From an uncultured Rubrivirga sp. (GTDB lineage Bacteria > Actinomycetota > Actinomycetes > S36-B12), in the NCBI GenBank assembly GCA_964550285.1, contig CAZJYN010000004.1, positions 1,950 through 65,949 of the forward strand: a stretch of 64,000 nt of DNA, written 5' to 3'. The notes beneath the pieces are model-generated. The model saw only the letters and a list, made by a program, of their open reading frames with translations. It was not told the origin of the DNA and did no database searches. The first letter of the stretch is position 1, and each line of letters starts with the position of its first letter. A program made the position numbers and the translations under genes. Positions 1 to 40,691 of this stretch are shown in pieces.

Positions 1-1171
1 GCATCTTGCGCCAGATCACCGAATGGCTCCAGTGCTCCACGTAGAAGTTGTGGTTCTCCACATACGGGAACACGGTGCGGGCCAGGCCGAGCTTGCCTTG
101 GAAGGCCTCTTTGTCCTCATCGGATGTGAGGAGTTCGGTGTACTCGGCAACCACGCGATCACGCTCGGCACGAATCGCTTCCACCGGTCGATTGAGATCC
201 TCTCCCGCTTGCACCTTCTCGATGTAGTTGCGGATGAACTCGAAGGGAACCTCCACATTTTCGATCCAGATCTTGTCGTGGTGGTAGAAGCCAGAACCCG
301 TGGAGAAGTTGAACCACGGCTCAGCCGACTCTTCGAACGAGGCGATCCAGGACTGGCCCTCGGCCGACCCCTTCAGGATCTGGCAGGTAGCTTCGACATC
401 CCCGGCTGAGAAGGCTTCCGCGACACCGCCGTCCACGGCCTTGCGTGCCAGCCGCTTGAGTTCATCATCCGGCCGGAACAGGTCCACATCCACACCGGCG
501 ACCATCTTGGCGATCGCCTGATCGGGAATGTTGGGGAACACGGTCTTGCAGAACATGAAGAAGTCCAGGTACGCCGCGTACCCGAGGTTCAAGAACTCGA
601 AGTGGTAATTCCATAGCTTCAAGCCCAAACTGACGAGCCGGTGATAGTTGTCCTGCAACTTGTAGCCCGACCCCAGACCAGAGCCGGACTTGACGACCTC
701 ATCGGCATCCTCGATCTCCGGTAGCGGCTCGAACTCCAGGGATTCGAGTTCAGCCACCAGATCACGGATCTTGACCATCCACTTGTCGTAGAGGTCGTTC
801 CAGTTCATGAAGTAGTGGCCGGCGCGGTCGGTGAAGTTTGCAACGCGCTCTTCGATCGTGGCCGGGTCCGCGGGCACGGGTGATAGGTAGCCGTACCCGT
901 TCAGGATGCGAAAGGCGATCCCGTTAGCGGGCGGTACCTGCAGGTGTCGTGTGTTGTATTGGGACAACGATGCGATGGCGAACTCGAAGAAGGTCGCATC
1001 CCACGGGGTCAGGACGTTCGGCCAATGGACCCCATCTTGGAACCAGAACATCGAGTCCTCGAAGTCCTTGCGGGCCGGTGAGAACATCGATGAATAGACG
1101 TACATTTCTTGCCAGCCCTCGGCACCCTCGGGTGTCTCGATGTCGAAGGGGCTGGGAAAGCGATCTGCCAT
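1..1171 (-). CDS. PEP-utilising-enzyme family protein, PpsA-like large subunit (first 390 codons only; 3' end lies outside the window)
   Basis: Absent from the supplied ORF track because it has no stop codon inside the window. My own reverse-strand translation from ATG 1171..1169 (RBS GAGAGGAA a few nt upstream) stays open to position 1. It reads MADRFPSPFDIETPEGAEGWQEMYVYSSMF..FWFQDGVHWPNVLTPWD..ILNGYGYLSPVP..HYFMNWNDLYDKW. From memory this N-terminal pattern matches the substrate-binding subunit of phenylphosphate-synthase/PEP-synthase-like enzymes. The gene starts 37 bp downstream of the PPDK_N gene on the same strand. Confidence 0.55.
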   Translation of the reverse strand, partial: MADRFPSPFDIETPEGAEGWQEMYVYSSMFSPARKDFEDSMFWFQDGVHWPNVLTPWDATFFEFAIASLSQYNTRHLQVPPANGIAFRILNGYGYLSPVPADPATIEERVANFTDRAGHYFMNWNDLYDKWMVKIRDLVAELESLEFEPLPEIEDADEVVKSGSGLGSGYKLQDNYHRLVSLGLKLWNYHFEFLNLGYAAYLDFFMFCKTVFPNIPDQAIAKMVAGVDVDLFRPDDELKRLARKAVDGGVAEAFSAGDVEATCQILKGSAEGQSWIASFEESAEPWFNFSTGSGFYHHDKIWIENVEVPFEFIRNYIEKVQAGEDLNRPVEAIRAERDRVVAEYTELLTSDEDKEAFQGKLGLARTVFPYVENHNFYVEHWSHSVIWRKM

Positions 1172-1208
1172 CTGCGTTTCCTCTCGTAGAACGGTTACCA
1201 GAGCACCG

Positions 1209-2285
1209 TCAGTGCTTCTGAGCGTGCAACGGGTTCATCAGGGTCGAGACGATGCTCGCCATGAAATCCCCGTTCGAACCCCCACCAGTGGATCCGCGCT
1301 GTTGCTTGCTCCAGACCGTCTCCGGCCGGGACTGCAGCAACACCACGTTCCCCCCATCTGGTAGATCCGCATCTACGGCCCATTCGATGTCCTGCGGGCA
1401 GCCGTAGTGCTTCTCTGCTGCCTTCGCCAAAGTGGCGATGGCCTTGATCTGCGCATCGGTGAGGCTTGCTGCCGTTGCGCGGTCTTCATCCGTCTCGACC
1501 TTCTCCACGGTGTCGTGGTCGGTGAGACGAAACTCATGGTTTTTCGGTGAGATCTTCCGCTTTCCGATCTCGAACAGGACCTTGTCGATCAGGAAGTTGT
1601 CGGGGGTGACTTCCCCGGAGACGACCCCTTCCCCGAAGCCCCATGCCGAATCGATGCAGATCTGGGATCGATCACCGTCGGAAGGATTGAGCGTGAATGC
1701 GACCCCCGCCGAAACGGGCCGCACCATCTTTTGGACCACGACACTCATCTCCACGGACTCGTGCACGTAGCCCATTTCCGCGCGGTAGCACGTGGCACGG
1801 TCGGTGAACAGGCTCGCCCAGCAGCGGCGCACCGCATCTACAACCGAGTCCGCACCCCGGATCCACAGGTAGGTGTCGTGCTCACCGGCGAAGGAGGCAT
1901 CCGGCGAGTCCTCGCTGGTGGCCGAGGAGCGCACAGCGACCGGTACGTCGTCGGTTGAGGAAAGACGACACAACTCGGCGTAGGCATTGCGTAATTCCGC
2001 TTCGACCTGCTGGTCCATCGGCATCTTGGTGATCGCATCGCGGATCTGCCGGCATCGATCCTCGACCATCGCGGTGTCGTTGGTGTCGAGATCCTTCAAC
2101 AGGCAAGCGAGGTCCGCATCGAGATTCGCCGCTTCCTTGCTGACCCGAAAAGCGGTGGTGGTCAGCGCGAAGCCCGGTGGCACCGGAAGACCTGCACCGG
2201 TCATCTCACCCAAGCTCGCGCCTTTTCCACCTACTTCCGGCTTCATTCCGTGCCAGTAACTCTCGAACCACATGATCGAACTCAT
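1209..2285 (-). CDS. PEP/pyruvate-binding (PPDK_N, ATP-grasp) domain protein, PpsB-like small subunit
   Basis: ORF 1209..2345 trimmed to the internal ATG at 2285 (MSSIMWFESYWHG). This ATG forms an ATGA overlap with the stop of the upstream gene. Motifs GGKGASLGEM, VAVRSSATSEDSP, SFAGEHDTYL and DIEWAVD are typical of the ATP-binding domain of PEP synthase/PPDK. At 358 aa it is that domain alone. Confidence 0.75.
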   Translation of the reverse strand: MSSIMWFESYWHGMKPEVGGKGASLGEMTGAGLPVPPGFALTTTAFRVSKEAANLDADLACLLKDLDTNDTAMVEDRCRQIRDAITKMPMDQQVEAELRNAYAELCRLSSTDDVPVAVRSSATSEDSPDASFAGEHDTYLWIRGADSVVDAVRRCWASLFTDRATCYRAEMGYVHESVEMSVVVQKMVRPVSAGVAFTLNPSDGDRSQICIDSAWGFGEGVVSGEVTPDNFLIDKVLFEIGKRKISPKNHEFRLTDHDTVEKVETDEDRATAASLTDAQIKAIATLAKAAEKHYGCPQDIEWAVDADLPDGGNVVLLQSRPETVWSKQQRGSTGGGSNGDFMASIVSTLMNPLHAQKH

Positions 2286-3454
2286 TGCTGATCCTCCTCG
2301 CGCAGTGCCTTGGGCAGGGCTCGACCGCTGAGCCCCTCCCACCAATCAGGAAGCTGGTCAAGATCGGGAACTTGAACTTCTTGCACCCGGTTGCGGTAGG
2401 CGATGAAGGCCGAATTCGTCTCGACGAGTCGGACGATCACCTCTTCGGTGTTGTACGGCTCCCCGGGGTCGTAGCCGAAGGCGCTGATCGCGAAGACCCT
2501 GATAGGCCCGGAGTGGGTGCCGACGATGATCCGATCACCGGGGTGTTCTGCCTTTATCCGCTGGATACCCGCCCAAAAACGTCGAACGGTGGCCGAAGGC
2601 GGCTCGAAGTTCAACATCGGAATCTGGGTCCACAGCGTGATGGGGTCCGCACCCCCCTGCTGCGTCTTCCAAAAACGGTCCATCTCCACGAGCCAGGTGG
2701 GTCGATCCCCCAGCGCCACCCGCTCGTACTTCTCCATCTCACGCTTGTAGAGACGAAATGCCCCGGTCACATCGCGCAGACCCTCGGGGGTCCACACCTG
2801 GAAATTACGGAACTCCTCCATCGCATGGACCTCGGAGATCTCTGCTTCGCGACCCCACATCGTCAAGCCATCGAGCAGTCCCTTGCGGATCCCCTCCGAG
2901 GTCTGACGTGCGCGGTTGGTATCCGCGCAGACGATATGGACGCGCTCTCCTTCGCGGATCGATTTGCTGATGTCGAAACCACGTCGGTGCACCTGCCAAC
3001 TACCCAGTGGTGTCAGGCCACTTTCCGTGGAGTACCCCTGGGTTTCGCCGTGCCGGATGATGTGCACCTGCGTCAGGACGGCCGGCCCAGACTGCTCACG
3101 TGACTCCGGGACGATCTCCTTGGTCTTGGTGATCTGCGCCCGCGCCATCGTGACGCCGAGGTCTTCGCCCTCCCAGGTGGGAAGGGGGGTCTCGAGCGGG
3201 TTCGCACCTGATCGCCTGTCTCGGAATCGACGTAGATAAAGCGGGACATCATCGGTCCGGTCCCCGCCTCGATCATCGCGTTCGTGCTGCTTACCCCCGC
3301 GCGACTCGCGCTCGAGGTACTTTTGCAAGTAGGCGGGGGGATCGGTCCGATCCATATGGGACAGGCGAGGACGCGCCGTGCCGCCATCGGCGGCGATCCG
3401 TTCGATCTCCGCCTCGCTGGTGGTTTCGGTGTCCCCGATCTCGGCTGCAGTCAT
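2282..3454 (-). CDS. histidine phosphatase (phosphoglycerate-mutase-like) family protein with charged N-terminal extension
   Basis: IIRHGETQ (RHG catalytic motif) and GTHSGPIR (second His motif) lie in the C-terminal ~250 aa. The N-terminal ~130 aa is charged and low-complexity. Start set at ATG 3454, 8 bp after the stop of the upstream dioxygenase gene. The longer ORF to 3544 would overlap that gene. Confidence 0.65.
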   Translation of the reverse strand: MTAAEIGDTETTSEAEIERIAADGGTARPRLSHMDRTDPPAYLQKYLERESRGGKQHERDDRGGDRTDDVPLYLRRFRDRRSGANPLETPLPTWEGEDLGVTMARAQITKTKEIVPESREQSGPAVLTQVHIIRHGETQGYSTESGLTPLGSWQVHRRGFDISKSIREGERVHIVCADTNRARQTSEGIRKGLLDGLTMWGREAEISEVHAMEEFRNFQVWTPEGLRDVTGAFRLYKREMEKYERVALGDRPTWLVEMDRFWKTQQGGADPITLWTQIPMLNFEPPSATVRRFWAGIQRIKAEHPGDRIIVGTHSGPIRVFAISAFGYDPGEPYNTEEVIVRLVETNSAFIAYRNRVQEVQVPDLDQLPDWWEGLSGRALPKALREEDQQ

Positions 3455-3462
3455 GTCTCTCC

Positions 3463-4374
3463 CTAGCTGTGCACCGTCAGGAACTGCTGGTCCACGACAC
3501 CGTCGTAGTAGAAGATCGCCCGACCCATCTCCGATTCGGTCCACGTGACCGGCGGTTCCTCCGGATCGACGTAGTAACCACCGGTGAAGGCTTCGTTGCG
3601 ATTACCCGCAGGGTCGAAGAAGTAGATGCAATGGCCGCGCGTGGCCCCGTGTCGCGTTGGATTCTTCTCGATCGGTACGCCGTGGTAAGCGAGGATGTCC
3701 GCGGTATCCCGTATGGCGGTCCAGTCATCGACCCAGAATGCGAAGTGGTGCAGGCCGCCGTCTTGGCCCGTCACCAGCGCGATGTCGTGCGAATGGTGCG
3801 AATGCTCTAGCCAGGTGGCTACTTGGAAGCCATCGTCACCGAGCACCTGTTCGGTGAGGTGGAAGTCGAGCACCTCCTGCAAGAACCGAGTGTTCGCGGC
3901 GACGTCCTCGCAGGTGATGAAGATGTGGTCAAGACGCGGTGGGGCGAAGCCGACGAGGTTGATCGGCTTGGGCGGCGGGTTGACCAGCGGTAGCAGGTTG
4001 CCCACCTGCTGCATGCCGTACACCAACTCCATAACGTGACCGCTGGGCAAGGAGAATCGAATGGCCTCGCCGTGTCCGGGCCCGATCTCCGCGGCGTCGA
4101 ATCGCATCACCTCGACACCGGCTTGTTCCAGCCTCGCGGTGTAGTGATCGAGATCCTCGCGGTAGCGGACCTTCCAGCCCATATGGTTCAGGCCGTAGGT
4201 CGACTCGCTGGTCAAGATCACCGAGTGGTGCTGGTGTTCATCCCAGCACTTCAGATAGACCCGGTCGGCCTCGCGAGCGGTCTCGTAGAGCCCGATGACC
4301 TCGGTGTAATAGGCCGTAGCCAATTCCAGGTCCGGAACGCGCACTTCCACGTGCGACAAACGCAAGATTCCCAT
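3463..4374 (-). CDS. catechol 2,3-dioxygenase (extradiol, two-domain VOC fold), copy 1
   Basis: 303 aa. LRLSHVEVRV N-terminus; candidate metal-ligand contexts PPRLDH, GGLHHFAFW, NRNEAFTGGY; C-terminal FLTVHS. Overall pattern matches XylE/DmpB-type enzymes. Confidence 0.9.
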   Translation of the reverse strand: MGILRLSHVEVRVPDLELATAYYTEVIGLYETAREADRVYLKCWDEHQHHSVILTSESTYGLNHMGWKVRYREDLDHYTARLEQAGVEVMRFDAAEIGPGHGEAIRFSLPSGHVMELVYGMQQVGNLLPLVNPPPKPINLVGFAPPRLDHIFITCEDVAANTRFLQEVLDFHLTEQVLGDDGFQVATWLEHSHHSHDIALVTGQDGGLHHFAFWVDDWTAIRDTADILAYHGVPIEKNPTRHGATRGHCIYFFDPAGNRNEAFTGGYYVDPEEPPVTWTESEMGRAIFYYDGVVDQQFLTVHS

Positions 4375-4389
4375 GTCTTGTCCGATCCC

Positions 4390-5298
4390 CTACGTGTGTA
4401 CCGTCATGAATCGGGTGTTGAGATCGCCTTCGTAGTAGAAGACGGCACGACCGATCTGGTCCTCAGTCCAGGTGATGGTCGGGAATTCCGGGTCCGGGCG
4501 ATAGCCCCCGGTGAAGACTTCGTTTCTGGTACCCAGCGGATCGAAGAAGTAGATCGTGTTTCCGCGGGTGATCCCGTGCCGAGTCGGACCGACATCGATC
4601 TGGATTCCGTTATAGGCGAGAACATCCGCGGAGCGACGTACGTGGTCCCAATCATCGAGCCACCACGCGAAGTGATGCAGGCCGCCGTTCTTGCCCGAGA
4701 CGATCGCGAGGTCGTGCGGACTGTCGGTCACCGTCATCCAGGTGGCGGCCTGGTGGCCCTGCCCATCCAGCAATTGTTCGGTAGTCCGAAAACCGAAGAC
4801 GTCCTCGTAGAACTTGGTCGAATCACCCACCTCTTCGGCGGTCACCAACAGGTGATCTAGGCGTGGTGGGGCGATACCGGTCAACCCCTCGACGAAGGGA
4901 GCGGGATTGATGGGCGCGGTCGCTCTGCCGACCATGTCCAAATCGGCGACGAGTTCCATCGTCTGCCCGGACGGGGTCTCGAACTGGATCGACTCCCCCT
5001 GCCCTATGCGATTCCCCTTGGAGATGCGGCGAACCGGGAACCCGTACTGCGAGACCCGATTTTCGAGTTCGTCGAGATCATCCTCACGGTCTACCTTGAA
5101 CGACATCAGGTCGAAGCCGACCCGCGGCCCGTATATCAACCGCAGCGAATGGTGGTTCGGCTCGTCCCAGCACTTGAGGTAGACCGAGTTCTCGTCCCGC
5201 TCAGTTTCGAGCAGGCCGATGACCTCGGTGTAGTACGCCGTGGCTAGGTCAAGGTCGGTGACCGTGACGTCAACGTGCGCCAGCCTTTGCAAACCCAT
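4390..5298 (-). CDS. catechol 2,3-dioxygenase (extradiol, two-domain VOC fold), copy 2
   Basis: 302 aa paralogue of the adjacent gene. It shares LATAYYTEVIGL, VYLKCWDE, PPRLDH, GGLHHFAWW and RNEVFTGGY. RBS GAGGGAG lies upstream of ATG 5298. Confidence 0.9.
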   Translation of the reverse strand: MGLQRLAHVDVTVTDLDLATAYYTEVIGLLETERDENSVYLKCWDEPNHHSLRLIYGPRVGFDLMSFKVDREDDLDELENRVSQYGFPVRRISKGNRIGQGESIQFETPSGQTMELVADLDMVGRATAPINPAPFVEGLTGIAPPRLDHLLVTAEEVGDSTKFYEDVFGFRTTEQLLDGQGHQAATWMTVTDSPHDLAIVSGKNGGLHHFAWWLDDWDHVRRSADVLAYNGIQIDVGPTRHGITRGNTIYFFDPLGTRNEVFTGGYRPDPEFPTITWTEDQIGRAVFYYEGDLNTRFMTVHT

Positions 5299-5317
5299 GG
5301 AATGTTCGCTCCCTCAC

Positions 5318-5335
5318 TTGTGTCACAGGACACAA
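5318..5335. promoter_or_regulatory. perfect 7-4-7 inverted repeat TTGTGTC-ACAG-GACACAA in the divergent control region (candidate IclR-type operator)
   Basis: Read directly from the sequence: TTGTGTCACAGGACACAA. It lies about 20 bp upstream of the start of dioxygenase copy 2 and about 100 bp upstream of the opposite operon, which encodes the IclR regulator. Confidence 0.35.
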
Positions 5336-5431
5336 CATCGATTGCGTGGAGCGTGACGGTAAGTGGAATGTGTCCCGCATGGAAGTACGTCGTCCCATCT
5401 ACAGGAACACCCGCTGCTAGCGTCCCGAAGC

Positions 5432-6097
5432 ATGGCAGCAGGTGCTCCCGAGCAGATGCGATCGGCGATGGCCGACTACATCCGTGCGGTGCATGAGGCC
5501 TACCTAGACGCCGCGGACCCCCTGCCACCGGCCGACCGCGCCCGACTACCGCTGTTCACCGACCGCCCGTTCACCGTGATCGCCGCAGGAACCCGTTACC
5601 TGCATGTCCTCGCGACGACCGACCCCTTGCCCGAACCCGTTGGCCAGGAGGTGCGCATCGAGGACAGCGCGAACGAACTGAACTGGAGTTTGCGCTTCTA
5701 CGACCCCGTCGTAGCGCCGGGGCTGGGACTGATCGACGAAGCCGATGCTCCGCAACCGACCCAGGTGCGCGACACCCTGGGAGTGCGAACTGTGCTTTAC
5801 CACCTGTCCGTGCCACCCGGTGGAGGGTTGACGGCTCATCACGCGCAGCACGCCGGAACCGGGCTGGCGCATTCGCACGCGGCAGCCGATCGTGATTTCA
5901 CCACGATGGCCGGATTGCAGCCCGCAAACGGGGAACTCATAGCCGAGATGCACGCTGCGCACGTCAACTCGATGCCGAATGCGCTGCGCCTGCTTGCAAA
6001 CGAACTCCTCGGTAAGCAAGCCATCGAGGCTTCGACCACCGACGTCGAATCGATCCGGCGGGCGGCACTGGAAGAACTCAGGTCAGCACAACGATGA
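5432..6097 (+). CDS. hypothetical protein (no family recognised), first gene of the lower-pathway operon
   Basis: ORF 5363..6097. I prefer ATG 5432 (MAAGAPEQMRSAMADYIRAVHEAY), but no clear RBS is visible, so the start is uncertain. Its stop overlaps the IclR start in an ATGA at 6094-6097. Contains a His-rich patch HHAQHAGTGLAHSH. Confidence 0.5.
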   Translation: MAAGAPEQMRSAMADYIRAVHEAYLDAADPLPPADRARLPLFTDRPFTVIAAGTRYLHVLATTDPLPEPVGQEVRIEDSANELNWSLRFYDPVVAPGLGLIDEADAPQPTQVRDTLGVRTVLYHLSVPPGGGLTAHHAQHAGTGLAHSHAAADRDFTTMAGLQPANGELIAEMHAAHVNSMPNALRLLANELLGKQAIEASTTDVESIRRAALEELRSAQR

Positions 6098-6903
6098 GCG
6101 AGGACACCCCCACACCTCGGCGGGCGCATTCGACACTGTCGAGTGTCCGCAATGCCGCGCGCCTGCTGCGCGAATTCTCCAAGGGCCCTCGCGAGTTGGG
6201 GGTTACCGAACTGTCCCGTCGCCTCGGAGTGGGCAAGAGCACCGCGCACCGTCTTGTGAACACACTCACCGAAGAACGACTCCTCGAACAAGACCCCGAC
6301 ACCGGTGCGTACCGACTCGGCCTCGCGATGTACGAGTTGGGGACCTCGGTCTACTGGCATACCGATCTACACGAAGCCTGCACTCCCGTTTTGGACCAAT
6401 TGCGCAACTCGACCAAGGAGACCGCGCAAGTGGCGGTGCTCGACGGCCACGAAGTCGTATACGTGGAACGACGAGAAAGTCCGCAGACCCTTCGACTCTT
6501 CGGACGTGTCGGGCATCGCAACGACGCGCACTGCACCAGCACCGGGAAACTGCTGCTGGCCTGCCTGCCCCCGGAACAACTCGATCGCACGTTGCGGGGC
6601 TGGCGACTTCCCGCCAAGACCCCTTACACCGTCACCAAGATCGATGATCTGCGCAAACAGTTGCAGACGATCCAAGCCCAGGGATGGGCAGAGAACATCA
6701 ACGAGGCCGAGCTCGGCGTCGCATCGGTAGCTGCGCCGATTCGTAACGGACTAGGGGAAGTGGTCGCAGCTGTGTCGATCGCCGGCCCCGTCCAACGACT
6801 TGGCGGGGAGTCACTACGCAGATTCGCCCGGCCCTGCATCGAAGCCGGGCTAGCCATCAGTCGACGTCTCGGTTACCGAGATTCCAAAGGAGGCCGCTTA
6901 TGA
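6094..6903 (+). CDS. IclR-family transcriptional regulator
   Basis: N-terminal winged HTH (LGVTELSRRLGVGKSTAHRLVNTL) plus an IclR effector domain (GHRNDAHCTSTGKLLLA, AAVSIAGP). ATGA overlaps at both ends (6094, 6900). Confidence 0.9.
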   Translation: MSEDTPTPRRAHSTLSSVRNAARLLREFSKGPRELGVTELSRRLGVGKSTAHRLVNTLTEERLLEQDPDTGAYRLGLAMYELGTSVYWHTDLHEACTPVLDQLRNSTKETAQVAVLDGHEVVYVERRESPQTLRLFGRVGHRNDAHCTSTGKLLLACLPPEQLDRTLRGWRLPAKTPYTVTKIDDLRKQLQTIQAQGWAENINEAELGVASVAAPIRNGLGEVVAAVSIAGPVQRLGGESLRRFARPCIEAGLAISRRLGYRDSKGGRL

Positions 6904-7712
6904 GCAACCTGACCGACGCCCAGGCGAGGGAGTTCGCGAACGCGCTGTACGAGGCACGCCGCGACCGGATTCCGATCCCGCCCTTCACCGAATCGATGCC
7001 CGAACTCGGCATGGCAGATGGCTACGCGATCCAGCAGCACCTGGTGAATCGCCTCGTGTCCGATGGTCACGAGATCTGCGGGTACAAACTCGGGCTCACT
7101 TCCGCACCGATGCAACAGCTACTCGGGGTCGATCAGCCGGACTTCGGGCCGGTCTTCGCGAATACCGTGCATCGGGACGGTTCCATCGTTCGCACATCGG
7201 ATTTCATCGCACCCCGTGTCGAGGCGGAGATAGCTGTGATCCTCGGGTCGGAACTGCAGGGGCCGAACTGCACACCAGCCGATGCCTATCTGGCAACCCG
7301 GGGACTGGCAGCATCCATCGAGATCGTGGACTCCCGCATCGAGGACTGGCGGATTTCGATCGCCGACACGGTCGCCGACCTAGCCAGCAACGGCGCCATC
7401 GCTCTAAGTAGCGCCGTGATCCCGATCGAGGACTTCGATCCCCGTCTCGTCGGGATGGTCTTCACCCGAGACGGCAACGTCGTGGCGACGGGAGCAGGGG
7501 CAGCAGCATTGGGCGATCCCCTCGCAGCGGTCGCATGGCTCGCCAACACGCTCGCTCCCATGGGCGTCACGCTGCCGGCCGGCAGCGTGATCTTGACCGG
7601 GGCGTTGCACGCGATGACGCCCATCAACCCCGGTGAGGTCTACCGAGCGGAGTTCGACCACCTTGGGTCCATCACGCTGCGCGTCGAAGAAGTCGAAGGA
7701 GAGGAGAACTGA
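6900..7712 (+). CDS. 2-oxopent-4-enoate (2-hydroxypentadienoate) hydratase, MhpD/XylJ/DmpE family
   Basis: 270 aa. [18 protein letters not shown] and EAEIAVIL are typical of the FAH-fold hydratase/decarboxylase family. First catalytic gene after the regulator. Confidence 0.8.
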
Positions 7713-8623
7713 TGGGCAAGAGATGCGCCATCATCGGGTCGGGGAACATCGGTAGCGACTTGATGTACAAGATGCTGCGCAGCGATGTCCTCGACCTCGT
7801 CGCCGTCGTAGGAATCGATCCTGCCAGTGATGGCCTCAGTCGAGCCCGCGAAGCCGGCCTAGAGGCACCCCACACCGGACCTGACTGGGTGCTGGAGAAC
7901 TCCGACGACATCGACATGGTCTTCGATGCCACCAGTGCGTACGTGCATGTCCGCTACTACAAGAAGTACGCGGAAGCAGGAATCACCGCGATCGATCTCA
8001 CCCCGGCGGCCAGAGGCCCCAAAGTGATTCCCCCCGTAAATCTCTACGAGCATCTCGATGCGCCGAACATCAACATGGTCACATGCGGGGGGCAAGCGAC
8101 AACTCCGATGGTCTACGCGATCCGCCGCGCCATCGACACCCTGCCGTACGCCGAGATGGTCTCGACCGTTTCGAGTCGCTCGGCGGGTCCGGGCACGCGG
8201 CAGAACATCGATGAATTCACCAAGACGACTGCTACTGCTCTTCGCGAGATCGGTGGAGCCGAGCACAGCAAGGCGATCATCGTGCTGAACCCCGCGGAGC
8301 CACCGATTCTCATGCGAAACACCGTCTTCGCTGGACTCCCCGAAGGCTCCGACCACGCCGCCGTGCTCGACTCCATCCATGAAATGGCCACACAGGTCGC
8401 GAAATACGTTCCCGGCTACCGGCTGAAGAACCCTCCGGTCGTGGAAGAGGGGCCCTTCTTCACGCCGGGGGGAGAAGTCCCACACCGTGCGGTCGTGCTC
8501 CTCGAAGTCGAGGGAGCCGGCGACTATCTACCCACTTACGCCGGCAATTTAGACATCATGACGGCCGCCGCCATGCGCGTCGGTGAGGCCGTGGCACACG
8601 CACAGCAGGAGGTACTCGCATGA
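7712..8623 (+). CDS. acetaldehyde dehydrogenase (acetylating), DmpF/MhpF/XylQ family
   Basis: [19 protein letters not shown]-binding N-terminus and [10 protein letters not shown] active-site Cys context. TGATG junction with the upstream gene and ATGA junction with the aldolase. Confidence 0.9.
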
Positions 8624-9663
8624 GCGCGGAGATTCTTAGCCCCGACGTCGACTACCGCCTTATCGACTCAACGCTTCGGGACGGTTCGCATGCGATCAGC
8701 CACCAATACGAGGCCGATGAAGTCATCGCGATCGTGCGGGGACTAGATGCAGCCGGTGTCCAGGTGATCGAGATCGCCCACGGAGACGGACTCGGCGGGT
8801 CGAGCTTCAACTACGGCTTCTCGAAGGTCGATGAGAAGGAACTCATCGCACGCGCCTGCGACGAAGCGCGGAATTCCACCATCGCTTGCCTGCTTCTCCC
8901 AGGTATCGGGCTCGCCGACGATCTGAAGGATGTGCAAGAGCTCGGAGTCGGCATGGCGCGAATCGCCACACACTGCACCGAGGCCGACATCAGCGAGCAG
9001 CACATCAAGACCGCGAAGCAACTCGGTATGGAGACTGTCGGCTTCATGATGATGGCCCACATGAACTCCCCCGAGGGCCTCGTCGAACAAGCATTGCTGA
9101 TGCAGTCCTATGGAGCAGACGCCATCTACATCGCCGACTCAGCCGGCGCCATGACCACCGAAGATGTCCGGCGTCGAGTGAACGCACTCGTGCAGGCTCT
9201 GGAGGTCCCGGTCGGTGTCCACGCCCACAACAACCTGTCGATGGCCGTAGCGAACTCGATCGCGGCCTACGAGGAAGGCGCGGCGAACCTCGACGGGACG
9301 AGTGCGGGATTGGGCGCCGGAGCAGGCAACTGCCCGACTGAGATCCTCGCTGCCGTATCGAACAAGTACGGAATCACAACCGGCGTCGATGCACTGAAGT
9401 TGATGGACGTCGCAGAAGAGGTCGTTCGGCCCATGATGCCCCGACAACAGGTGATCGATCGAGCCGGCCTTATCTTGGGGTACGCCGGCGTGTACGGCTC
9501 CTTCCTGCTGCACGCGCAGAAAGCAGCTGAGCGCTACAACGTCCCCCAGGCCGACATCCTGCTCGAACTCGGTCGTCGCAAGGTCGTCGGCGGTCAAGAG
9601 GACATGATCATCGACGTCGCCTTGGAATTGGCGCGCGAGCACGCAGGTCAGGAGGAATCGTGA
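8620..9663 (+). CDS. 4-hydroxy-2-oxovalerate aldolase, DmpG/MhpE/XylK family
   Basis: [28 protein letters not shown], and the canonical pairing directly after the acylating dehydrogenase. Confidence 0.9.
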
Positions 9664-10433
9664 ACCCATCCGAACTCGCCGATCGGCTGATCCGAGCTGC
9701 CGGTGAACGAGTCGCCACGACGCCACTGACCGATGAGTTCCCCGAACTCGACGTCCCTACCGCGTACACCATCCAAGATGCAGTCGTCGCTGCACGTCAA
9801 GCATCGGGGTCGGTCATCGTGGGGGCGAAGCTGGGTCTAACGAGCACGGCGAAGCAAAAGCAAATGAACGTCGACGAGCCGCTGTATGGGTGGCTGACAC
9901 ATGACATGCAGGTAGACACCGGGGAAGTCCTGGTCTGCGGTGATTACATCCAACCGCGATGTGAACCGGAGGTGGCTTTCCTGCTCGGCGAGGATCTCGA
10001 GGGACCCGGAGTCACCGCGGCCCGCGTGCTTGCGGCCACGGACCTGGTATTTCCTTCCGTGGACGTGCTGGACTCTCGTTTCGCGGGCTACTCGTTCAAG
10101 CTCCCGGATGTCGTCGCGGATAACTCCTCGTGCGCGGGCTTCGTCCTCGGTGGGCAGGGCCTTGACCCAGCCGGGTTCGATCTGCGCTTGACGGGTTGCG
10201 TGTTCGAGAAGAACGGTCGATTGGTCGCCACTGCGTCCGGTGCCGCAGTACTCGGCCATCCTGCAGCGAGCGTCGCCTGGCTCGTGCGAAAGCTAGCCGA
10301 GCGTGGGCAGGGCCTGCAGGCCGGACACATCGTGCTCTCCGGTTCGATGACCGAAGCCATCGCGGTAGCACCAGGTGATGTGATCACCGCCCGGTTCGAC
10401 CGACTCGGCACCGTCGAGATTCCCTGTGGTTAG
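9660..10433 (+). CDS. 4-oxalocrotonate decarboxylase (XylI/DmpH-like; second member of the hydratase/decarboxylase family)
   Basis: AYTIQDAVV, GAKLGLTS, EPEVAFLL. Its position immediately before the tautomerase gene fits the decarboxylase. Hydratase and decarboxylase cannot be separated by eye. Confidence 0.75.
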   Translation: MNPSELADRLIRAAGERVATTPLTDEFPELDVPTAYTIQDAVVAARQASGSVIVGAKLGLTSTAKQKQMNVDEPLYGWLTHDMQVDTGEVLVCGDYIQPRCEPEVAFLLGEDLEGPGVTAARVLAATDLVFPSVDVLDSRFAGYSFKLPDVVADNSSCAGFVLGGQGLDPAGFDLRLTGCVFEKNGRLVATASGAAVLGHPAASVAWLVRKLAERGQGLQAGHIVLSGSMTEAIAVAPGDVITARFDRLGTVEIPCG

Positions 10434-10441
10434 GAGACAAC

Positions 10442-10639
10442 ATGCCCTTCGTCCAGGTCACCATGATGCAAGGCCGTAGCACCGAACAAAAGCACGCACT
10501 GATGAAGCAGATCACCGAGGCGGTGGTCGACTCCCTCGGTAGCGACCCTGCGCGGGTACGAGTCGCCATCTACGAAGTTACCGAAGACGAATGGGCCGTC
10601 GGGGGCGAGCCGATGTCGGTAATCAACGCGCGAAAGTAG
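10442..10639 (+). CDS. 4-oxalocrotonate tautomerase
   Basis: 65 aa, MPFVQVTMMQGRS (Pro1 after Met removal). Size and pattern match the tautomerase superfamily. Confidence 0.85.
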   Translation: MPFVQVTMMQGRSTEQKHALMKQITEAVVDSLGSDPARVRVAIYEVTEDEWAVGGEPMSVINARK

Positions 10640-10649
10640 GTCCGATCAC

Positions 10650-11033
10650 GTGTGGCACCGCACGATCCCTGAAAGCGAGTTGGGCGATAACGCTGCCCAC
10701 CGTGTGCTCATCGAAGACCAAGCGATTTGCCTAGCCCGCGTAGATGCCCAGGTGCGAGCGATATCCGATGTCTGTCCGCATCGCGGAGCATCACTGAGCG
10801 AAGGGCTCGTGCGGGACGGGTGCGTCACCTGCCCTGCACACCTATGGCGGTTCAGCTTCGTGGACGGCGAGAAACAAGGCGACGGCCGCACACGGGTCGA
10901 GACGTATCCGGTGCGCGTCGTTCACGGTGTGGTCGAGGTGGACGTCCCACCCCTTCCTCCACCTCGATCCTTGCGCGAGATCCTGCTCGCACACGCGCGC
11001 GGGCAAGATGCCGAACAAGAAGGAGATGCATGA
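10650..11033 (+). CDS. small Rieske [2Fe-2S] domain protein (NirD/ferredoxin-like)
   Basis: CPHRGASL ... CPAHLWRF gives the CxH..CxxH Rieske ligand motif. 127 aa, GTG start. Stop overlaps the next gene in an ATGA at 11030-11033. Confidence 0.8.
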   Translation: MWHRTIPESELGDNAAHRVLIEDQAICLARVDAQVRAISDVCPHRGASLSEGLVRDGCVTCPAHLWRFSFVDGEKQGDGRTRVETYPVRVVHGVVEVDVPPLPPPRSLREILLAHARGQDAEQEGDA

Positions 11034-11680
11034 ACGCCCAGGGGCTGCTGCTAGATGTCGGTGTCGTCTTCTTCAAGTCGGCGTGGGAGATCGCGGATGA
11101 TTACGAGCGTCTACGCGGGCTACCCCCCGGCACCGTCGTGGGTCGGGGACCACTCGATCCGGGTGGTGACGAGCGTTGGGAGCGATACCGGGCAGGGGAA
11201 GCGACAGAGCGCGAGTATTGGCTCGACTTCGCGGCCAAGGCGCAAGCCAACGGCGCTCCACTTGATGGCCACCCCACTTTGATGAGAGCCATGTTCCAAA
11301 CACCGGGTATCGAGGTCACTAGGCCGGAGGCCATCGATCTCGTCCGGAAGGCACGCGGTACCGACAGGCGAGTCGGCATCTTGACCAACGAACTCATGGA
11401 CTTCCAAGGGCGAGACTGGGTCGAATCGCAAGAGTGGTTCGAGTGGTTCCCAGTACTGATTGACTCGACCGAACTAGGCATACGCAAGCCCGACCCCCGC
11501 CCCTACGAGGTGGCAATCGAACAGATGGGGTTGCCCGCCGAAGAGATCGTCTTCATCGACGACAACCCGACCTACGTTGCAGGCGGTGAGGCGGTTGGCC
11601 TGCAGAGCCTGCTTCTCGACGTTCGCGAACCAGGTGCTGTATTCGCAGAGGCGAGTCGCCGTTTGGGCCTTACCGATTGA
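11030..11680 (+). CDS. HAD-superfamily hydrolase (subfamily IA-like) with atypical motif I
   Basis: ORF 10727..11680 trimmed to ATG 11030 (MNAQGLLLDVGVVFF). HAD motifs: LLDVGVV (I), ILTNE (II), RKPD (III), FIDDN (IV). Motif I reads D-V-G, so the second Asp of phosphatase-type HADs is missing. Confidence 0.7.
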   Translation: MNAQGLLLDVGVVFFKSAWEIADDYERLRGLPPGTVVGRGPLDPGGDERWERYRAGEATEREYWLDFAAKAQANGAPLDGHPTLMRAMFQTPGIEVTRPEAIDLVRKARGTDRRVGILTNELMDFQGRDWVESQEWFEWFPVLIDSTELGIRKPDPRPYEVAIEQMGLPAEEIVFIDDNPTYVAGGEAVGLQSLLLDVREPGAVFAEASRRLGLTD

Positions 11681-13100
11681 TCTGCATCACCACTGCTTTG
11701 GGTTCGGTGAAGAACTCCCGACTGAAGTTGCCGCCCTCGCGTCCCACGCCGGATTCCCCGACTCCGCCGAAGGGTGCCCGTAGGTCCCGGATGAAGAAGC
11801 AGTTGACCCACACCGTCCCGGCGTTCAAGCTATCTGCCACCCGGTGTGCGCGGCTGAGATTCTCGGTGAACACCATCGCGTTCAACCCGTACTTGGTGTC
11901 GTTGGCTACTTGCACCACTTCATCTTCGGTGTCGAAGGGTTGAACGACCACCACTGGGCCGAAGATCTCCTCTCGGCAGACCCGAGCGGCCGGTGGGGCG
12001 TCGACGATGATGGTGGGATCGACGAACCAGCCCTCGCCTACGCCTCCCGTCAGGACGCGACCCCCATCGGCTTCGAGAGTGTCGAAGTAGCTCGTGACCT
12101 TCTCGAAGTGCGTCTTGCTGGCGAGCGGACCAAACTCCGTGCCCGCGTCCTTCGGGTCTCCTTGGCGCATCGCCTGGGCAGCCTGGACGTAACGCTCGAG
12201 GAATTCCTCGTAGATGCCGCGCTGCACGAACAGCCGGGAACCGGCAAGACAGACCTGCCCGGCATTTCGGAATATCGCCTGGATCGCCCAATTGACGGCG
12301 TTGTCCAGATCGGCATCGTCGAACACGATGTTGGCGCCCTTGCCACCCAATTCCAAGGAAACGGGAATGAGGTGCTTCGACGCAGCGGCGCTGATGATCT
12401 TCCCGGTTGTGGATTCTCCGGTGAAGGTGATCCGATCGACGTTCGGATTGTGGGTAAGTGCCTCGCCCACCGATTCCGGACCGAACCCGTGCACCACGTT
12501 CAAGACGCCGGGTGGGAGACCGGCTTCGAGCGCGAGCCGAGCCCAGATCGTGACAGAGACCGGGGTGTCCTCGGCCGGCTTGAGAACGACCGTGTTGCCC
12601 CAGGCGAGCGCCGGTGCCACCTTCCAGGTGCTCAACATCAACGGGAAGTTCCACGGTGAGATCGCGACCGCCACACCCGCGGGTCCGTAGGACGAATAGG
12701 CGTGATGCCCGGAGTCCATCGGGTAGGTCTCCGCAGCGGTCAAGCGCGCATGATCGGCAAAGAATCGGACATTCCATGCACTGCGGGCAACATCGTGGTG
12801 GGCCTGGGTTATCGGCTTACCCATGTCGCGGGTGTCGGCCAGGGCGAGTTCCTCGGCGTTGTCCATCATCAGATCGGCGAGCCGGTGCAAGATGCCTTGG
12901 CGCTTCTCGTAGCCCATGTGCGGCCAGGGACCTGAATCGAACGCTGCCCGGGCAGCCGCGACTGCTGCATCGGCATCCGGCGCGCCCCCCAGGGCGACGT
13001 CAGCCCAGGGCTCGCGGGTGTATGGATCGATGGTTTCCATCGTGCGCCCGTCGATCGACGGGACTTCCTCGCCCCCGATGATGTGACCGTAGAAGTTCAT
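11670..13100 (-). CDS. 2-hydroxymuconic semialdehyde dehydrogenase (XylG/DmpC-like NAD+ aldehyde dehydrogenase)
   Basis: 476 aa ALDH. FTGESTTGK, LELGGKGANIVF, catalytic Cys in NAGQVCLAGSRL. The C-terminal VWVNCFFIRDLRAPFGGVGESGVGREGG is, as I remember it, typical of HMSD/HpaE-type enzymes. Confidence 0.8.
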   Translation of the reverse strand: MNFYGHIIGGEEVPSIDGRTMETIDPYTREPWADVALGGAPDADAAVAAARAAFDSGPWPHMGYEKRQGILHRLADLMMDNAEELALADTRDMGKPITQAHHDVARSAWNVRFFADHARLTAAETYPMDSGHHAYSSYGPAGVAVAISPWNFPLMLSTWKVAPALAWGNTVVLKPAEDTPVSVTIWARLALEAGLPPGVLNVVHGFGPESVGEALTHNPNVDRITFTGESTTGKIISAAASKHLIPVSLELGGKGANIVFDDADLDNAVNWAIQAIFRNAGQVCLAGSRLFVQRGIYEEFLERYVQAAQAMRQGDPKDAGTEFGPLASKTHFEKVTSYFDTLEADGGRVLTGGVGEGWFVDPTIIVDAPPAARVCREEIFGPVVVVQPFDTEDEVVQVANDTKYGLNAMVFTENLSRAHRVADSLNAGTVWVNCFFIRDLRAPFGGVGESGVGREGGNFSREFFTEPKAVVMQINR

Positions 13101-13127: not shown

Positions 13128-14186
13128 CTATACGTACTCGTCATCCCGCTGAGCAGAACGGTGAATGGGCCAAGTGTCCGCGAGTCGGTAGCCCGACGGC
13201 CACGGGTCCATGGGATCTAGGTAGTACTGGGACGTTCCATAGATCCAAGCTCGGCCCACGATGCGCGGGATCACCGCCCGGTGCTCGCCCACGACGGTCG
13301 TATCGACGATCGAGCAATCGAATGCCGAGTCGATGATCGACCGAGCGCGGTATTCCTGCCCGACGGAGATCTCGCCCCGGTCGTGAAGCAGTGCAAGTAG
13401 CGCCGAGCAGCCGGTTCCCGTGGGGGATCGATCGATCTTGCCCGGCTTGATGGCGCAGGCATTGCGCGAGGTCAGGACACCGCCTTCCTCAAGGAGATCC
13501 CCGACGATGTAGGCGAAGGAGAAATGCGTCCAATCGGGCAAGGTCGGATGCTCGAACGTCCACTGCTCATTAGCAGCCGCGCACACGGCCCGACCGAGAT
13601 CCGCCAGGGCGCGTGCGTTGTCGGGACGTATGTCGACTCCAAGGTCGGTGGCAGACACGATCACGAAACTGTCGCCACCGAATGCCGTGTCGACTCGAAG
13701 CTCGCCCACGCCGGGCACTTGCAAGATCGCATCCCGCCGCTCGACGAAACTCGCGACGTTCGTCAACGCCAGCGATTCGACTCGGTTGTCGCGGCAGCTT
13801 GCATCGATGCGCACTGTTCCTGCCGGAGCTTCGATACGCACCTCGGTCAGCGGTTCGTCCATCGGCACCTGGCCGGTGTGCAACAGCACCGCCGCGACAC
13901 ACATCGAGTTCGACCCCGACATAGGCGGGGTGTCCTCCGGTTCCATGATGACGAAACCACTGTGCGCGCTCGCGTCGAATGCCGGGACGAGCAGGTTCAC
14001 ATGCCGGAAGAGACCACCGCGGGGCTCGTTTAGCAGGAAATCGCGCAGCGAGGCATCGGTCGCGATGAATCGTGACTGTTCCCAGATCGAATTCCCGGGC
14101 GGTGGGGCGATTCCGCCGACGACGACATCCCCGACCTCACCCTCAGCGTGGCAGTGGACGACATGGACGATCCGATCGGTCTGCAC
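13128..14186 (-). CDS. proline racemase / hydroxyproline epimerase superfamily protein, Ser/Thr active-site variant
   Basis: 352 aa. HCHAEGEVGDVV N-terminus and DRSPTGTG motif of PF05544. The positions of the two catalytic Cys read PM-S-GSN (Ser90) and DRSP-T-GTG (Thr256). The gene ends 27 bp upstream of, and on the same strand as, the HMSD gene. Confidence 0.8.
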   Translation of the reverse strand: MQTDRIVHVVHCHAEGEVGDVVVGGIAPPPGNSIWEQSRFIATDASLRDFLLNEPRGGLFRHVNLLVPAFDASAHSGFVIMEPEDTPPMSGSNSMCVAAVLLHTGQVPMDEPLTEVRIEAPAGTVRIDASCRDNRVESLALTNVASFVERRDAILQVPGVGELRVDTAFGGDSFVIVSATDLGVDIRPDNARALADLGRAVCAAANEQWTFEHPTLPDWTHFSFAYIVGDLLEEGGVLTSRNACAIKPGKIDRSPTGTGCSALLALLHDRGEISVGQEYRARSIIDSAFDCSIVDTTVVGEHRAVIPRIVGRAWIYGTSQYYLDPMDPWPSGYRLADTWPIHRSAQRDDEYV

Positions 14187-14204
14187 GCTCGGACCCTAGT
14201 GCGA

Positions 14205-15869: not shown

Positions 15870-15927
15870 AGCACCACCGTTGCACAATTCACCGCACCCA
15901 CGGCGCAATGCCGGGCCCGTGTCGGCC

Positions 15928-16779: not shown

Positions 16780-16844
16780 GGGAATCCCTTCGCCTCGAGG
16801 TCGAGCCGGCGAAGGCTATCCCAAGCACTGCCATACTCACCGCC

Positions 16845-40429: not shown

Positions 40430-40691
40430 AATTCGAGCCTCACCCGAAGTCACACGTGGGCGCCTCAAGAGCCATCGGATGATCCCCGGCCGCTCGACGC
40501 ATGATCGTGATCATCGCTCTCCACGACTTGGACGGATATCTGCACAGCATCAATCCATGGCCGGCCACCGGCAACGCTTGTTCAATCCTGGATCCTCGAA
40601 CGCCTTGACCTCGAGCAATCATCACGGTGAACGAAGCGTCCTTGCCTCGAATTCGGGAGAAAGTTGTCGTTGTCCAGAAATTTCGGCTGAG

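Follow-up and report, generated by a model that had tools for sequence, protein, structure and literature searches.

Introduction

Two-component phenolic dikinases, which include PpsAB, CreHI, HpeHI, and AcvAB, are composed of an ATP-grasp component and a substrate/swivel component and release AMP and Pi as products (PMC9618137, PMC12167813, PMC12624787). Their catalytic histidine is located in a T/SxxGGxxxH motif that carries a methionine, not the regulatory threonine, two residues before the histidine, a feature defined in PMC12167813. This study describes a gene cluster in which a dikinase of this type is joined to a Rieske oxygenase, a protein of the histidine phosphatase superfamily, and two catechol 2,3-dioxygenases. 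The cluster lies at the left edge of a 64,000-nucleotide stretch of contig CAZJYN010000004.1 (assembly GCA_964550285.1, deposited as an uncultured Rubrivirga sp.), which is referred to here as the window, and it continues on a nearly identical metagenome contig.

Phosphorylation as the opening step of aerobic aromatic catabolism is documented only for 4-cresol and for hydroxyphenylethanones, and both routes lead to hydroxybenzoates. CreHI operates together with CreD on 4-cresol under aerobic conditions in Corynebacterium; the Cre oxygenase works on phosphorylated intermediates, after which a phosphohydrolase acts (PMC9618137). HpeHI with HpeD from Rhodococcus rhodochrous GD02, and AcvAB with AcvF from Sphingobium SYK-6, serve the aerobic use of acetovanillone and 4-hydroxyacetophenone (PMC9618137, PMC12167813, PMC12624787), and the carboxylase of the Hpe pathway takes only the phosphorylated substrate. 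A preliminary description of this DNA, made from the sequence alone, had stated that no aerobic pathway with such a kinase or a dedicated phosphatase was known; given CreHI-CreD, HpeHI-HpeD, and AcvAB-AcvF, the first two of which are actinobacterial, this view is outdated. The PpsABC system of Thauera and Azoarcus belongs to anaerobic phenol degradation. Lastly, in Ensifer adhaerens HP1 a PEP-utilizers/PPDK_N pair is genetically essential, with HpdA, for the ring hydroxylation of 3-hydroxypyridine, in which no phosphorylated end product was seen.

The cluster described here is proposed, with slightly better than even confidence, to encode the upper part of an aerobic catabolic route in which a simple phenol would be phosphorylated, oxygenated by the Rieske enzyme, dephosphorylated, and finally cleaved in the meta position. 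It is a well supported conserved genetic unit, and its function is predicted by homology.

Results and Discussion

Organization of the cluster

On the minus strand, the window opens with five tightly packed genes, which code for a PpsA-like protein, a PPDK_N ATP-grasp protein, a histidine phosphatase, and two catechol 2,3-dioxygenases (a and b; Table 1). All five, and the sizes of their junctions, are as given in the preliminary description. Read in the direction of transcription, a 15-bp gap (read from the sequence) separates dioxygenase genes b and a, and the ATG of the phosphatase gene follows after 8 bp that include a GGAGAG ribosome-binding site. The phosphatase stop and the ATP-grasp start share an ATGA overlap at 2282-2285, and the 37-bp gap between the ATP-grasp and large-subunit genes contains GAGAGGAAA. 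No terminator-like site was found by a terminator scan of the intergenic gaps of this run; a sigma-70 promoter scan gave no match either, a scan that says little for a high-GC actinobacterium. A divergent plus-strand operon (5456-11680) holds further cluster genes, and the minus-strand run and this operon are functionally interlocked.

The exact ATP-grasp protein is present on four metagenome contigs. The truncated large-subunit gene was completed on the 13.9-kb metagenome contig L001, which corresponds to window positions 1-9940 at 99.85 % identity and runs 3.98 kb beyond the left edge. Past this edge, L001 carries, in order, the remainder of the large-subunit gene, a 146-bp spacer, the gene of the Rieske oxygenase, a gene for a small protein with four cysteines (4-Cys protein), a gene for a third MhpD-like protein, and a HAD hydrolase gene. 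The earlier remark that the window has no hydroxylase or ring-hydroxylating dioxygenase is therefore an artefact of the edge: the Rieske gene starts just past the truncated gene, and a Rieske-type ferredoxin is encoded inside the window.

Table 1. Cluster genes in the window and, where marked L001, on the contig that extends it.
Feature	Position	Strand	Basis or remark
Large dikinase subunit, N-terminal 390 of 603 aa (CreH/PpsA/HpeH homologue; substrate-binding)	1..1171	-	PRK08296 models
Large dikinase subunit, complete, 603 aa, swivel domain with His561	L001:8770-10581		PF00391, residues 526-597
ATP-grasp dikinase subunit (CreI/PpsB/HpeI homologue), 358 aa	1209..2285	-	PF01326 PPDK_N
Histidine-phosphatase-superfamily protein, 390 aa, proposed aryl-phosphate phosphatase	2282..3454	-	PF00300
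Catechol 2,3-dioxygenase paralogue a, 303 aa	3463..4374	-	TIGR03211, 366 bits
Catechol 2,3-dioxygenase paralogue b, 302 aa	4390..5298	-	TIGR03211, 360 bits
Conserved protein, 213 aa, HHAxHAGTGLAHSHAAA motif	5456..6097	+	First gene of divergent operon; overlaps IclR start
IclR-family regulator	6094..6903	+	HTH_IclR and IclR_C (Pfam) on the identical L001 gene; conserved beside cluster
2-Oxopent-4-enoate hydratase-like (DmpE/XylJ type)	6900..7712	+	TIGR03220 best hit, 252 bits, below equivalog cut-off; PF01557
Acetaldehyde dehydrogenase (acylating), DmpF type	7712..8623	+	PF09290 AcetDehyd-dimer, Semialdhyde_dh
4-Hydroxy-2-oxovalerate aldolase, DmpG type	8620..9663	+	PF00682, PF07836 DmpG_comm
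4-Oxalocrotonate (2-oxo-3-hexenedioate) decarboxylase-like	9660..10433	+	TIGR03218 best hit, 274 bits
4-Oxalocrotonate tautomerase, 65 aa, begins MPFVQV	10442..10639	+	55 % to Tautomerase-family gene of L005
Rieske-type [2Fe-2S] ferredoxin	10650..11033	+	Best NCBIfam AndAb, HcaC ferredoxin subunits; 54 % to Rieske ferredoxin of L005
HAD-IA hydrolase paralogue, 214 aa	11036..11680	+	TIGR01509, TIGR02247
Second HAD-IA hydrolase, downstream of Rieske gene	L001:13000-13647		37 % identical to 11036..11680
Aldehyde dehydrogenase, 2-hydroxymuconic semialdehyde dehydrogenase-like	11670..13100	-	PF00171

Identity of the dikinase

Every sequence-level criterion assigns the window kinase to the two-component phenolic dikinases, whose stand-alone ATP-grasp subunit is of about 40 kDa and whose substrate/swivel subunit is of about 70 kDa. 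The ATP-grasp subunit gives PPDK_N at E 2e-112 and matches the crystal structure of HpeI (9GOJ) at E 1.9e-75 over residues 15-332; a PEP synthase chain (9DAE) scores slightly better (E 8.5e-78), and 9GOJ is the closest two-component structure, i.e., the closest with a stand-alone ATP-grasp protein. The 390 residues of the large subunit that are encoded in the window gave no Pfam hit and correspond to positions 1-390 of PRK08296 models (NCBIfam) of about 600 aa. On the completed protein, the PEP-utilizers domain (E 1.7e-24) is the sole Pfam domain, and the PEP/pyruvate TIM-barrel (PF02896) is absent by Pfam. The swivel domain has the motif TDTGGMMSH, in which His561 is the catalytic residue, with Ser at -1 and Met at -2, i.e., the family hallmark including the replacement of the regulatory threonine. 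In the preliminary description the pair had been read as the split ATP-grasp plus His-swivel/substrate layout of phenylphosphate synthase. Domain content bears this out: PF01326 is found on the ATP-grasp protein and PF00391 on the completed large subunit. The swivel domain, which was out of sight in the truncated gene, is present on L001. By homology, the predicted reaction is that of a phenol and ATP to an aryl phosphate, AMP, and Pi.

For comparison, reference loci were typed by their own gene context, not by name. The Cre reference comprised the Rhodococcus plasmid clusters L008 and L009, with the order IclR-P450-creI-creH-SDR-Fdx-FdR-HD-ALDH; the Pps reference was Azoarcus sp. KH32C (ppsA-ppsB-CBS-ppcBDAG), and the Hpe/Acv reference was a Rhizobium locus that encodes a biotin carboxylase next to a HAD protein. 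Over about 600 aa, identities of the large subunit are 54 % with the Cre-type protein, 48.6 % with PpsA of Azoarcus, and 44.8 % with the Hpe/Acv-type protein, which is as close as the three reference types are to each other (43-45 %). For the ATP-grasp subunit, the corresponding values are 47 % (Cre-type), 49 % (Pps-type), and 44 % (Hpe-type). In a neighbour-joining tree, the large subunits from Rieske-linked loci form a clade of their own beside the cre-type sequences.

Other identities were rejected. PEP synthase (358 bits against a cut-off of 598, no PF02896, and two genes instead of one chain) and rifampicin phosphotransferase (RPH; 264 bits against a cut-off of 999, two separate genes) do not apply, and a prodigiosin-ligase-type enzyme was ruled out by domain content and a sub-threshold score. 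RPH, PEP synthase, and pyruvate phosphate dikinase (PPDK) resemble the window kinase in having an ATP-grasp domain and a His swivel and in converting ATP to AMP and Pi. They differ in that RPH is a single fused chain of which only the swivel region aligns by sequence (HpeH and RPH are reported to be about 20 % identical), and in that PEP synthase and PPDK contain the TIM-barrel that is missing here. An affinity to haloarchaea, considered in view of acidic proteins and a weak HVO_A0261_N match, was also rejected, as the closest homologues are actinobacterial and the haloarchaeal ones are 39-41 % identical. As a side observation, a second dikinase gene pair is located within 10 kb of the first in loci L039, L060, L064, L067, and L069.

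Comparison with the described pathways

The Cre system is the nearest relative. Like the window cluster, it is actinobacterial and aerobic, its ATP-grasp gene precedes that of the large subunit, its large subunit has the highest identity among the reference types and is the nearest branch in the tree, and it follows the same scheme of a kinase, an oxygenase with ferredoxin and reductase, and a phosphohydrolase, with an IclR regulator. However, the Cre oxygenase is the P450 CreJ, which oxidizes the methyl group, whereas a Rieske oxygenase is found here; the Cre phosphohydrolase is an HD-domain protein, whereas the window cluster has a His_Phos_1 protein; and the Cre route treats the side chain by means of an SDR and an ALDH and ends in 4-hydroxybenzoate, in contrast to the two extradiol dioxygenases of the window cluster. 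With Rhodococcus CreJ, CreG, and CreD as tblastn queries, nothing was found in the window. The same queries detected no CreJ or CreD in the Rieske-linked loci; for CreG, weak SDR matches (29-30 %) in L041, L055, and L085 were all that they returned. Of the Cre gene set, which also comprises CreEF and the ALDH CreC, the cluster has in common just the I-then-H order and the IclR regulator.

The Hpe and Acv systems share with the window cluster an aerobic dikinase followed by a dedicated phosphatase, as well as the swivel motif with its catalytic histidine. They differ by their lower identity (about 44-45 %), by a large-subunit gene that comes first, by a biotin-dependent carboxylase in the middle step, which is absent from the window cluster, and by a NagD-like HAD phosphatase that is unrelated to the window histidine phosphatase; they end in vanillate or 4-hydroxybenzoate. 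No biotin carboxylase occurs in the Pfam-annotated neighbourhoods of the cluster loci, and the HAD proteins of the cluster have no meaningful similarity to the Rhizobium Hpe/Acv-type HAD protein. The PpsABC system is alike in subunit architecture and mechanism (48.6 % and 49 % identity to the KH32C pair). It differs in its CBS-domain subunit PpsC, its UbiD-type carboxylase (ppcBDAG), its A-then-B gene order, and its anaerobic context, whereas the window cluster is full of O2-dependent enzymes. Neither a PpsC CBS subunit nor a UbiD-type phenylphosphate carboxylase is present in the window, on L001, or in the related loci. The cluster would follow the plan of the Cre and Hpe pathways, with phosphorylation, conversion, and removal of the phosphate, but it is not a Cre, Hpe/Acv, or Pps system, because the defining partner enzymes of these are absent. 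The Ensifer system likewise features a kinase-assisted hydroxylation of a phenol-like compound, but it depends on a molybdenum hydroxylase, no histidine phosphatase has been reported for it, and its host is a proteobacterium.

The phosphatase slot is occupied by a different fold in each system, namely an HD protein (Cre), a NagD-like HAD protein (Hpe/Acv), a metallophosphoesterase (a haloarchaeal variant), and a His_Phos_1 protein (the window cluster). The haloarchaeal variant, L092, is located on a plasmid of Haladaptatus salinisoli (NZ_CP085331.1, 2400-12000), where a dikinase pair about 40 % identical stands beside a two-subunit Rieske dioxygenase; an alcohol dehydrogenase, an aldehyde dehydrogenase, and the metallophosphoesterase are also encoded there, and it looks like another kinase-oxygenase-phosphatase combination. 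Literature searches yielded no description of a cluster that combines a dikinase, a Rieske oxygenase, a histidine phosphatase, and extradiol dioxygenases. The preliminary description had expected a new feature of aromatic catabolism; with the kinase type already known, this overstated the novelty, and what is new is the context, in which a Rieske oxygenase, a His_Phos-type phosphatase, and extradiol meta-cleavage are joined to it.

Conservation of the cluster among Actinomycetota

A scan with one genome per species gave 80 loci, mostly from Actinomycetota, whose large subunits are 60-97 % identical to that of the window. These loci were scored by tblastn with all cluster proteins, and the denominators given here count the loci whose flanks are long enough. 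Of 68 such loci, 62 have the Rieske gene immediately downstream of the kinase, and in 50 of 70 the histidine phosphatase gene lies immediately upstream of the kinase. Rieske oxygenase, phosphatase, and both dioxygenases occur together in 38 of the 52 fully flanked loci. The most constant part is the kinase-Rieske-(4-Cys) module (62/68 loci; 47/52 when fully flanked), and nine of the 52 fully flanked loci have kinase and Rieske genes without the phosphatase. Three loci of a Chloroflexi type are cre-like instead. With the gene order repeated in dozens of species, the arrangement is far beyond chance, and the linkage of kinase, phosphatase, and dioxygenases that the preliminary description had anticipated is kept across many genomes. 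The reading that kinase and phosphatase are mere neighbours of the aromatic genes and functionally unconnected to them, for which only the general caveat speaks that adjacency is not function, is effectively refuted by this synteny, as the order repeats across actinobacterial orders at kinase identities down to 60 %, with gaps of 8-37 bp or overlaps.

The carriers range over Nanopelagicales-like metagenome-assembled genomes (MAGs), Nocardioides, Nostocoides, Longivirga, Acidimicrobiia, Pseudonocardiales, and Streptosporangiaceae, and many of them are aquatic Actinomycetota of dilute environments. Cultured carriers are Longivirga aurantiaca, Nocardioides zhouii, N. psychrotolerans, and Nostocoides sp. 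Soil756. The genes from the dioxygenases to the semialdehyde dehydrogenase form a single co-directional run in the Nocardioides and Nostocoides loci, save for a divergent regulator pair.

Loci L006 and L047 look like remnants of the cluster. In L005 and L007, the chromosomal spot of L006, with gyrB/carbonic anhydrase genes on one side and Suc_Fer-like/topoisomerase genes on the other, is taken by full clusters. The L010 and L018 contigs, which are 90-97 % identical to the window cluster, sit in MAGs labelled Rubrivirga, a genus that is not actinobacterial; the other close relatives of this cluster are all Nanopelagicales or Actinomycetota, and mis-binning is probable.

The Rieske oxygenase and its probable electron-transfer partners

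The Rieske oxygenase encoded on L001 has 419 aa and contains the Pfam domains PF00355, LigXa_C, and VanA_C. Among solved structures, the phthalate dioxygenases 7FJL (E 1.6e-48) and 7FHR (E 7e-44) match it best. The Rieske motif CPHRRASL...CGYHGW and the Fe motif NWLQIMENSVDPHHVEWLH align with 7FJL, and both are intact. No gene for a Rieske beta-subunit is adjacent in the annotated neighbourhoods, and the enzyme is assigned by sequence to the phthalate-dioxygenase (alpha-only) family. Since enzymes of this family bind anionic aromatics, an aryl phosphate would be a chemically reasonable substrate.

The ferredoxin encoded in the divergent operon is the probable electron carrier of the oxygenase. 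In more distant loci, a Pyr_redox_2 gene follows the HAD gene. The gene of the 4-Cys protein (L001:11974-12276; 74-100 aa among homologues) overlaps the stop of the Rieske gene; its product gave no family hit, and its CxxC...CxxC pattern is invariant in 56 of 56 homologues. The 4-Cys protein may act beside the oxygenase as a zinc-ribbon or rubredoxin-like partner.

The histidine phosphatase

His_Phos_1 is detected on the 390-aa phosphatase at E 7e-12, with the motifs RHG at residues 134-136 and THSG at residues 313-316. In an alignment of 18 sequences, R134, H135, G136, R181, R183, and H314 are invariant, as is the segment NRARQT. The mechanical open reading frame (ORF) reaches a GTG at 3544, and the ATG at 3454 fits the homologues. 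The catalytic core begins at about residue 126. The extension of about 130 charged residues noted in the preliminary description does exist, at about 125 aa, and is not merely charged: it is predicted to be mostly disordered, yet it carries the invariant motifs RxDxPxYLxxYxxR and PLYLRRFRxR, which suggests a docking function.

The core of the AlphaFold2 (AF2) model has pLDDT values above 85, and Foldseek matched the model to TIGAR, PhoE, PSP, and CobC with a probability of 1.0, at 10-17 % identity and target-normalized TM-scores of 0.47-0.56 among the top five matches. By sequence, the phosphatase matched nothing in the PDB. The protein is a very divergent member of branch 1 of the histidine phosphatase superfamily, and the PDB sequence search and the AF2/Foldseek searches give only this generic assignment to a superfamily. 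There are about 1,100 close homologues, all of 344-392 aa. An exhaustive profile search of 1.84 billion representatives returned only 326 sequences of the family at E<=1e-3, and look-ups centred on phosphatase homologues found the same cluster in three of three cases, with the phosphatase directly upstream of the kinase. The family is therefore small and apparently dedicated to the dikinase-Rieske-dioxygenase cluster.

It is proposed that the phosphatase acts on an aryl phosphate. Its gene overlaps that of the kinase by 4 nt in 26 of 53 loci, an arrangement of translational coupling. In the split operons of L066 and L073, it stays beside the dioxygenases and away from the kinase, and it would therefore represent a metabolic step that delivers catechol rather than a kinase subunit. 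The idea that it forms an obligatory third subunit of the kinase, in the manner of PpsC, was rejected, as it is absent from several kinase-Rieske loci and tracks the dioxygenases in split operons.

Ring cleavage and the lower pathway

Both dioxygenases exceed the curated TIGR03211 cut-off of 320 bits. They consist of Glyoxalase and Diox-like_N domains (two-domain VOC fold), and in both translations the segments LDH, LHH, TRHG, IYFFDP, and RNE are visible, which hold the Fe ligands and catalytic residues in XylE. The two paralogues are 52 % identical, and orthologues of a are 58-95 % identical across loci. As a and b form separate orthologue groups throughout the loci, the duplication is old and has been maintained.

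By homology, at the level of family assignments, the cluster encodes a complete dehydrogenative meta pathway. This branch takes catechol and 4-substituted catechols. The aldehyde dehydrogenase scores 530 bits with HpaE and 514 bits with OH_muco_semi_DH, both below the equivalog cut-offs, and its orthologue lies within the operon in the Nocardioides and Nostocoides loci. In both HAD paralogues, motif I reads D-x-G-G where D-x-D is usual, and the same holds for 41 of 41 homologues inspected; these proteins may catalyse an atypical reaction. The 213-aa protein at the start of the divergent operon is present in most loci and is modelled by AF2 with a pLDDT of 92. It has no Pfam or NCBIfam hit, and Foldseek against the PDB found no significant match (best E 0.44, kanamycin nucleotidyltransferase).

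Proposed pathway and alternatives

A phosphorylation/dephosphorylation step on a phenol, raised as a possibility in the preliminary description, is the most likely function. The likely substrate is phenol or a 4-alkylphenol, e.g., p-cresol, and a guaiacol-type phenol is possible. In the proposed route, the dikinase pair would first convert ArOH, ATP, and H2O to ArO-PO3, AMP, and Pi via phospho-His561, by homology to CreHI, PpsAB, and HpeHI. The Rieske oxygenase, fed by the ferredoxin (10650-11033) and a FAD reductase, would then oxygenate the aryl phosphate beside the ester carbon, either by ortho-hydroxylation or by O-demethylation, as suggested by gene linkage and by the Cre precedent, in which the oxygenase takes the phosphorylated substrate only. 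Next, the histidine phosphatase would release catechol from the hydroxy-aryl phosphate. The catechol could finally be turned into pyruvate and acetyl-CoA by the two catechol 2,3-dioxygenases and the enzymes of the divergent operon, i.e., semialdehyde dehydrogenase, 4-oxalocrotonate tautomerase (4-OT), decarboxylase, hydratase, aldolase, and acylating dehydrogenase. Phosphorylation might serve to trap a diffusing phenol at low concentration and to provide an anionic handle for the oxygenase.

Several points weigh against this proposal or limit it. The HMMER alignment of the oxygenase to phthalate dioxygenase skips residues of about 190-290, leaving the carboxylate-binding Arg207 and Arg244 uncovered. 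A ferredoxin reductase gene was found neither in the window nor in the cluster flanks of the closest relatives (L010, L012, L018, L020). Among the 52 fully flanked loci, 11 have the kinase or the kinase-Rieske pair with no phosphatase within 10 kb, and in L006 and L047 nothing is left but the kinase pair and a Pyr_redox_2 reductase, the genes for Rieske oxygenase, phosphatase, and dioxygenases being absent, so the cluster does not strictly require the phosphatase. The two conserved HAD hydrolases of the cluster could be the real phosphatase, but their motif I is without the usual second Asp. Substrate, oxygenase chemistry, and sequence of steps are alike inferred, and since an ordinary flavin phenol hydroxylase reaches the same net result without ATP, the selective advantage is conjectural.

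The main rival is that the phosphate serves as a traceless leaving group: the Rieske enzyme would dioxygenate the aryl phosphate at the ester carbon and its neighbour (ipso or angular attack), and the gem-hydroxy phosphate so formed would lose Pi spontaneously and yield catechol directly. The histidine phosphatase would then merely serve as a safety valve through which surplus or wrong aryl phosphates are recycled. Such ipso-dioxygenation would explain how the kinase-Rieske-(4-Cys) unit, the most constant one, can be without the phosphatase in 9-11 loci. The LigXa_C and VanA_C hits of the oxygenase fit the group of enzymes that break aryl-O-X bonds. In the phthalate family, VanA, LigXa, DdmC, and phenoxybenzoate dioxygenase break such bonds via hemiacetals. 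No gene for a cis-dihydrodiol dehydrogenase was seen in the cluster, which also agrees with this mechanism. Nevertheless, it is considered unlikely. A phosphatase family that seems exclusive to the cluster and overlaps the kinase gene so often shows much conservation for an accessory, the phosphatase goes with the dioxygenases when the operon splits, and no such aryl-phosphate dioxygenase is described in the literature searched.

Decidedly improbable is a scheme of trap and release, in which the kinase would capture the phenol as a membrane-impermeant ester, the phosphatase would free it again, and the Rieske enzyme would hydroxylate the free phenol. Scavenging or trapping was proposed by the authors of the HpeHI work from a sub-micromolar KM, the kinase and phosphatase genes overlap, and many carriers are aquatic Actinomycetota from dilute habitats. 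However, a kinase and a phosphatase acting on one compound would make up a futile, ATP-consuming cycle, and the strict adjacency of kinase and Rieske genes suggests that a substrate is handed over between the two enzymes. In both characterized aerobic pathways, moreover, the enzyme that follows the kinase acts specifically on the phosphorylated intermediate, and the later product is preferred by the phosphatase.

Even less probable is that the kinase acts not on the incoming phenol but on catechol, which would be detoxified or buffered in the form of catechyl phosphate, or on a meta-pathway intermediate of the enol/keto kind, in which case it would be PEP synthase-like and the histidine-phosphatase-fold protein would be a phosphatase or mutase on its product. 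Phenylphosphate synthase is reported to accept catechol, the phosphatase fold family includes mutases, and the meta pathway ends in pyruvate. Against this, the large subunit is without a PEP/pyruvate domain and aligns over its full length with the CreH, PpsA, and HpeH types, the closest tie of the kinase is to the Rieske gene of the upper pathway and not to lower-pathway genes, and the remnant clusters hold a kinase without a dioxygenase. Both this scheme and trap and release agree less well with the pattern of linkage and with domain content than the proposed route of phosphorylation, oxygenation, and dephosphorylation.

Implications

If the proposed route holds, it would constitute a new way from phenols to catechols and would suggest that abundant planktonic actinobacteria consume trace phenolics. 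It would also assign a function for the first time to a divergent phosphatase family and to an uncharacterized Rieske clade, and supply enzymes for the selective phosphorylation or hydroxylation of phenols in biocatalysis and lignin valorization. It is a doubtful but possible further step that the Rieske enzyme would be the first oxygenase with an aryl phosphate as its physiological substrate, and that oxygenase and dikinase together would amount to a flavin-independent 'phenol hydroxylase' driven by ATP, in which phosphate is either a traceless activating or leaving group, lost as Pi upon ipso-dioxygenation, or a protecting group that a purpose-built histidine phosphatase takes off. On this view, aquatic and soil Actinomycetota, Nanopelagicales-like plankton among them, would make widespread use of the route to scavenge trace phenols. 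As cultured carriers exist, the idea is directly testable.

Other genes in the window

To the right of the cluster, the minus-strand region 13128-20077 carries, by Pfam labels, genes for a proline-racemase-family protein, a Vgb-lyase-like beta-propeller, an unannotated ORF of 433 aa, a DyP-type peroxidase, and a PCuAC copper chaperone, beside which an EamA transporter (Pfam label) is encoded on the opposite strand. No other aromatic hydroxylase occurs among the large ORFs of the 20-64 kb part of the window, which contains unrelated housekeeping and transport genes. A tRNA-Thr (CGT) at 40691-40763 on the minus strand is the sole RNA gene detected in the window.

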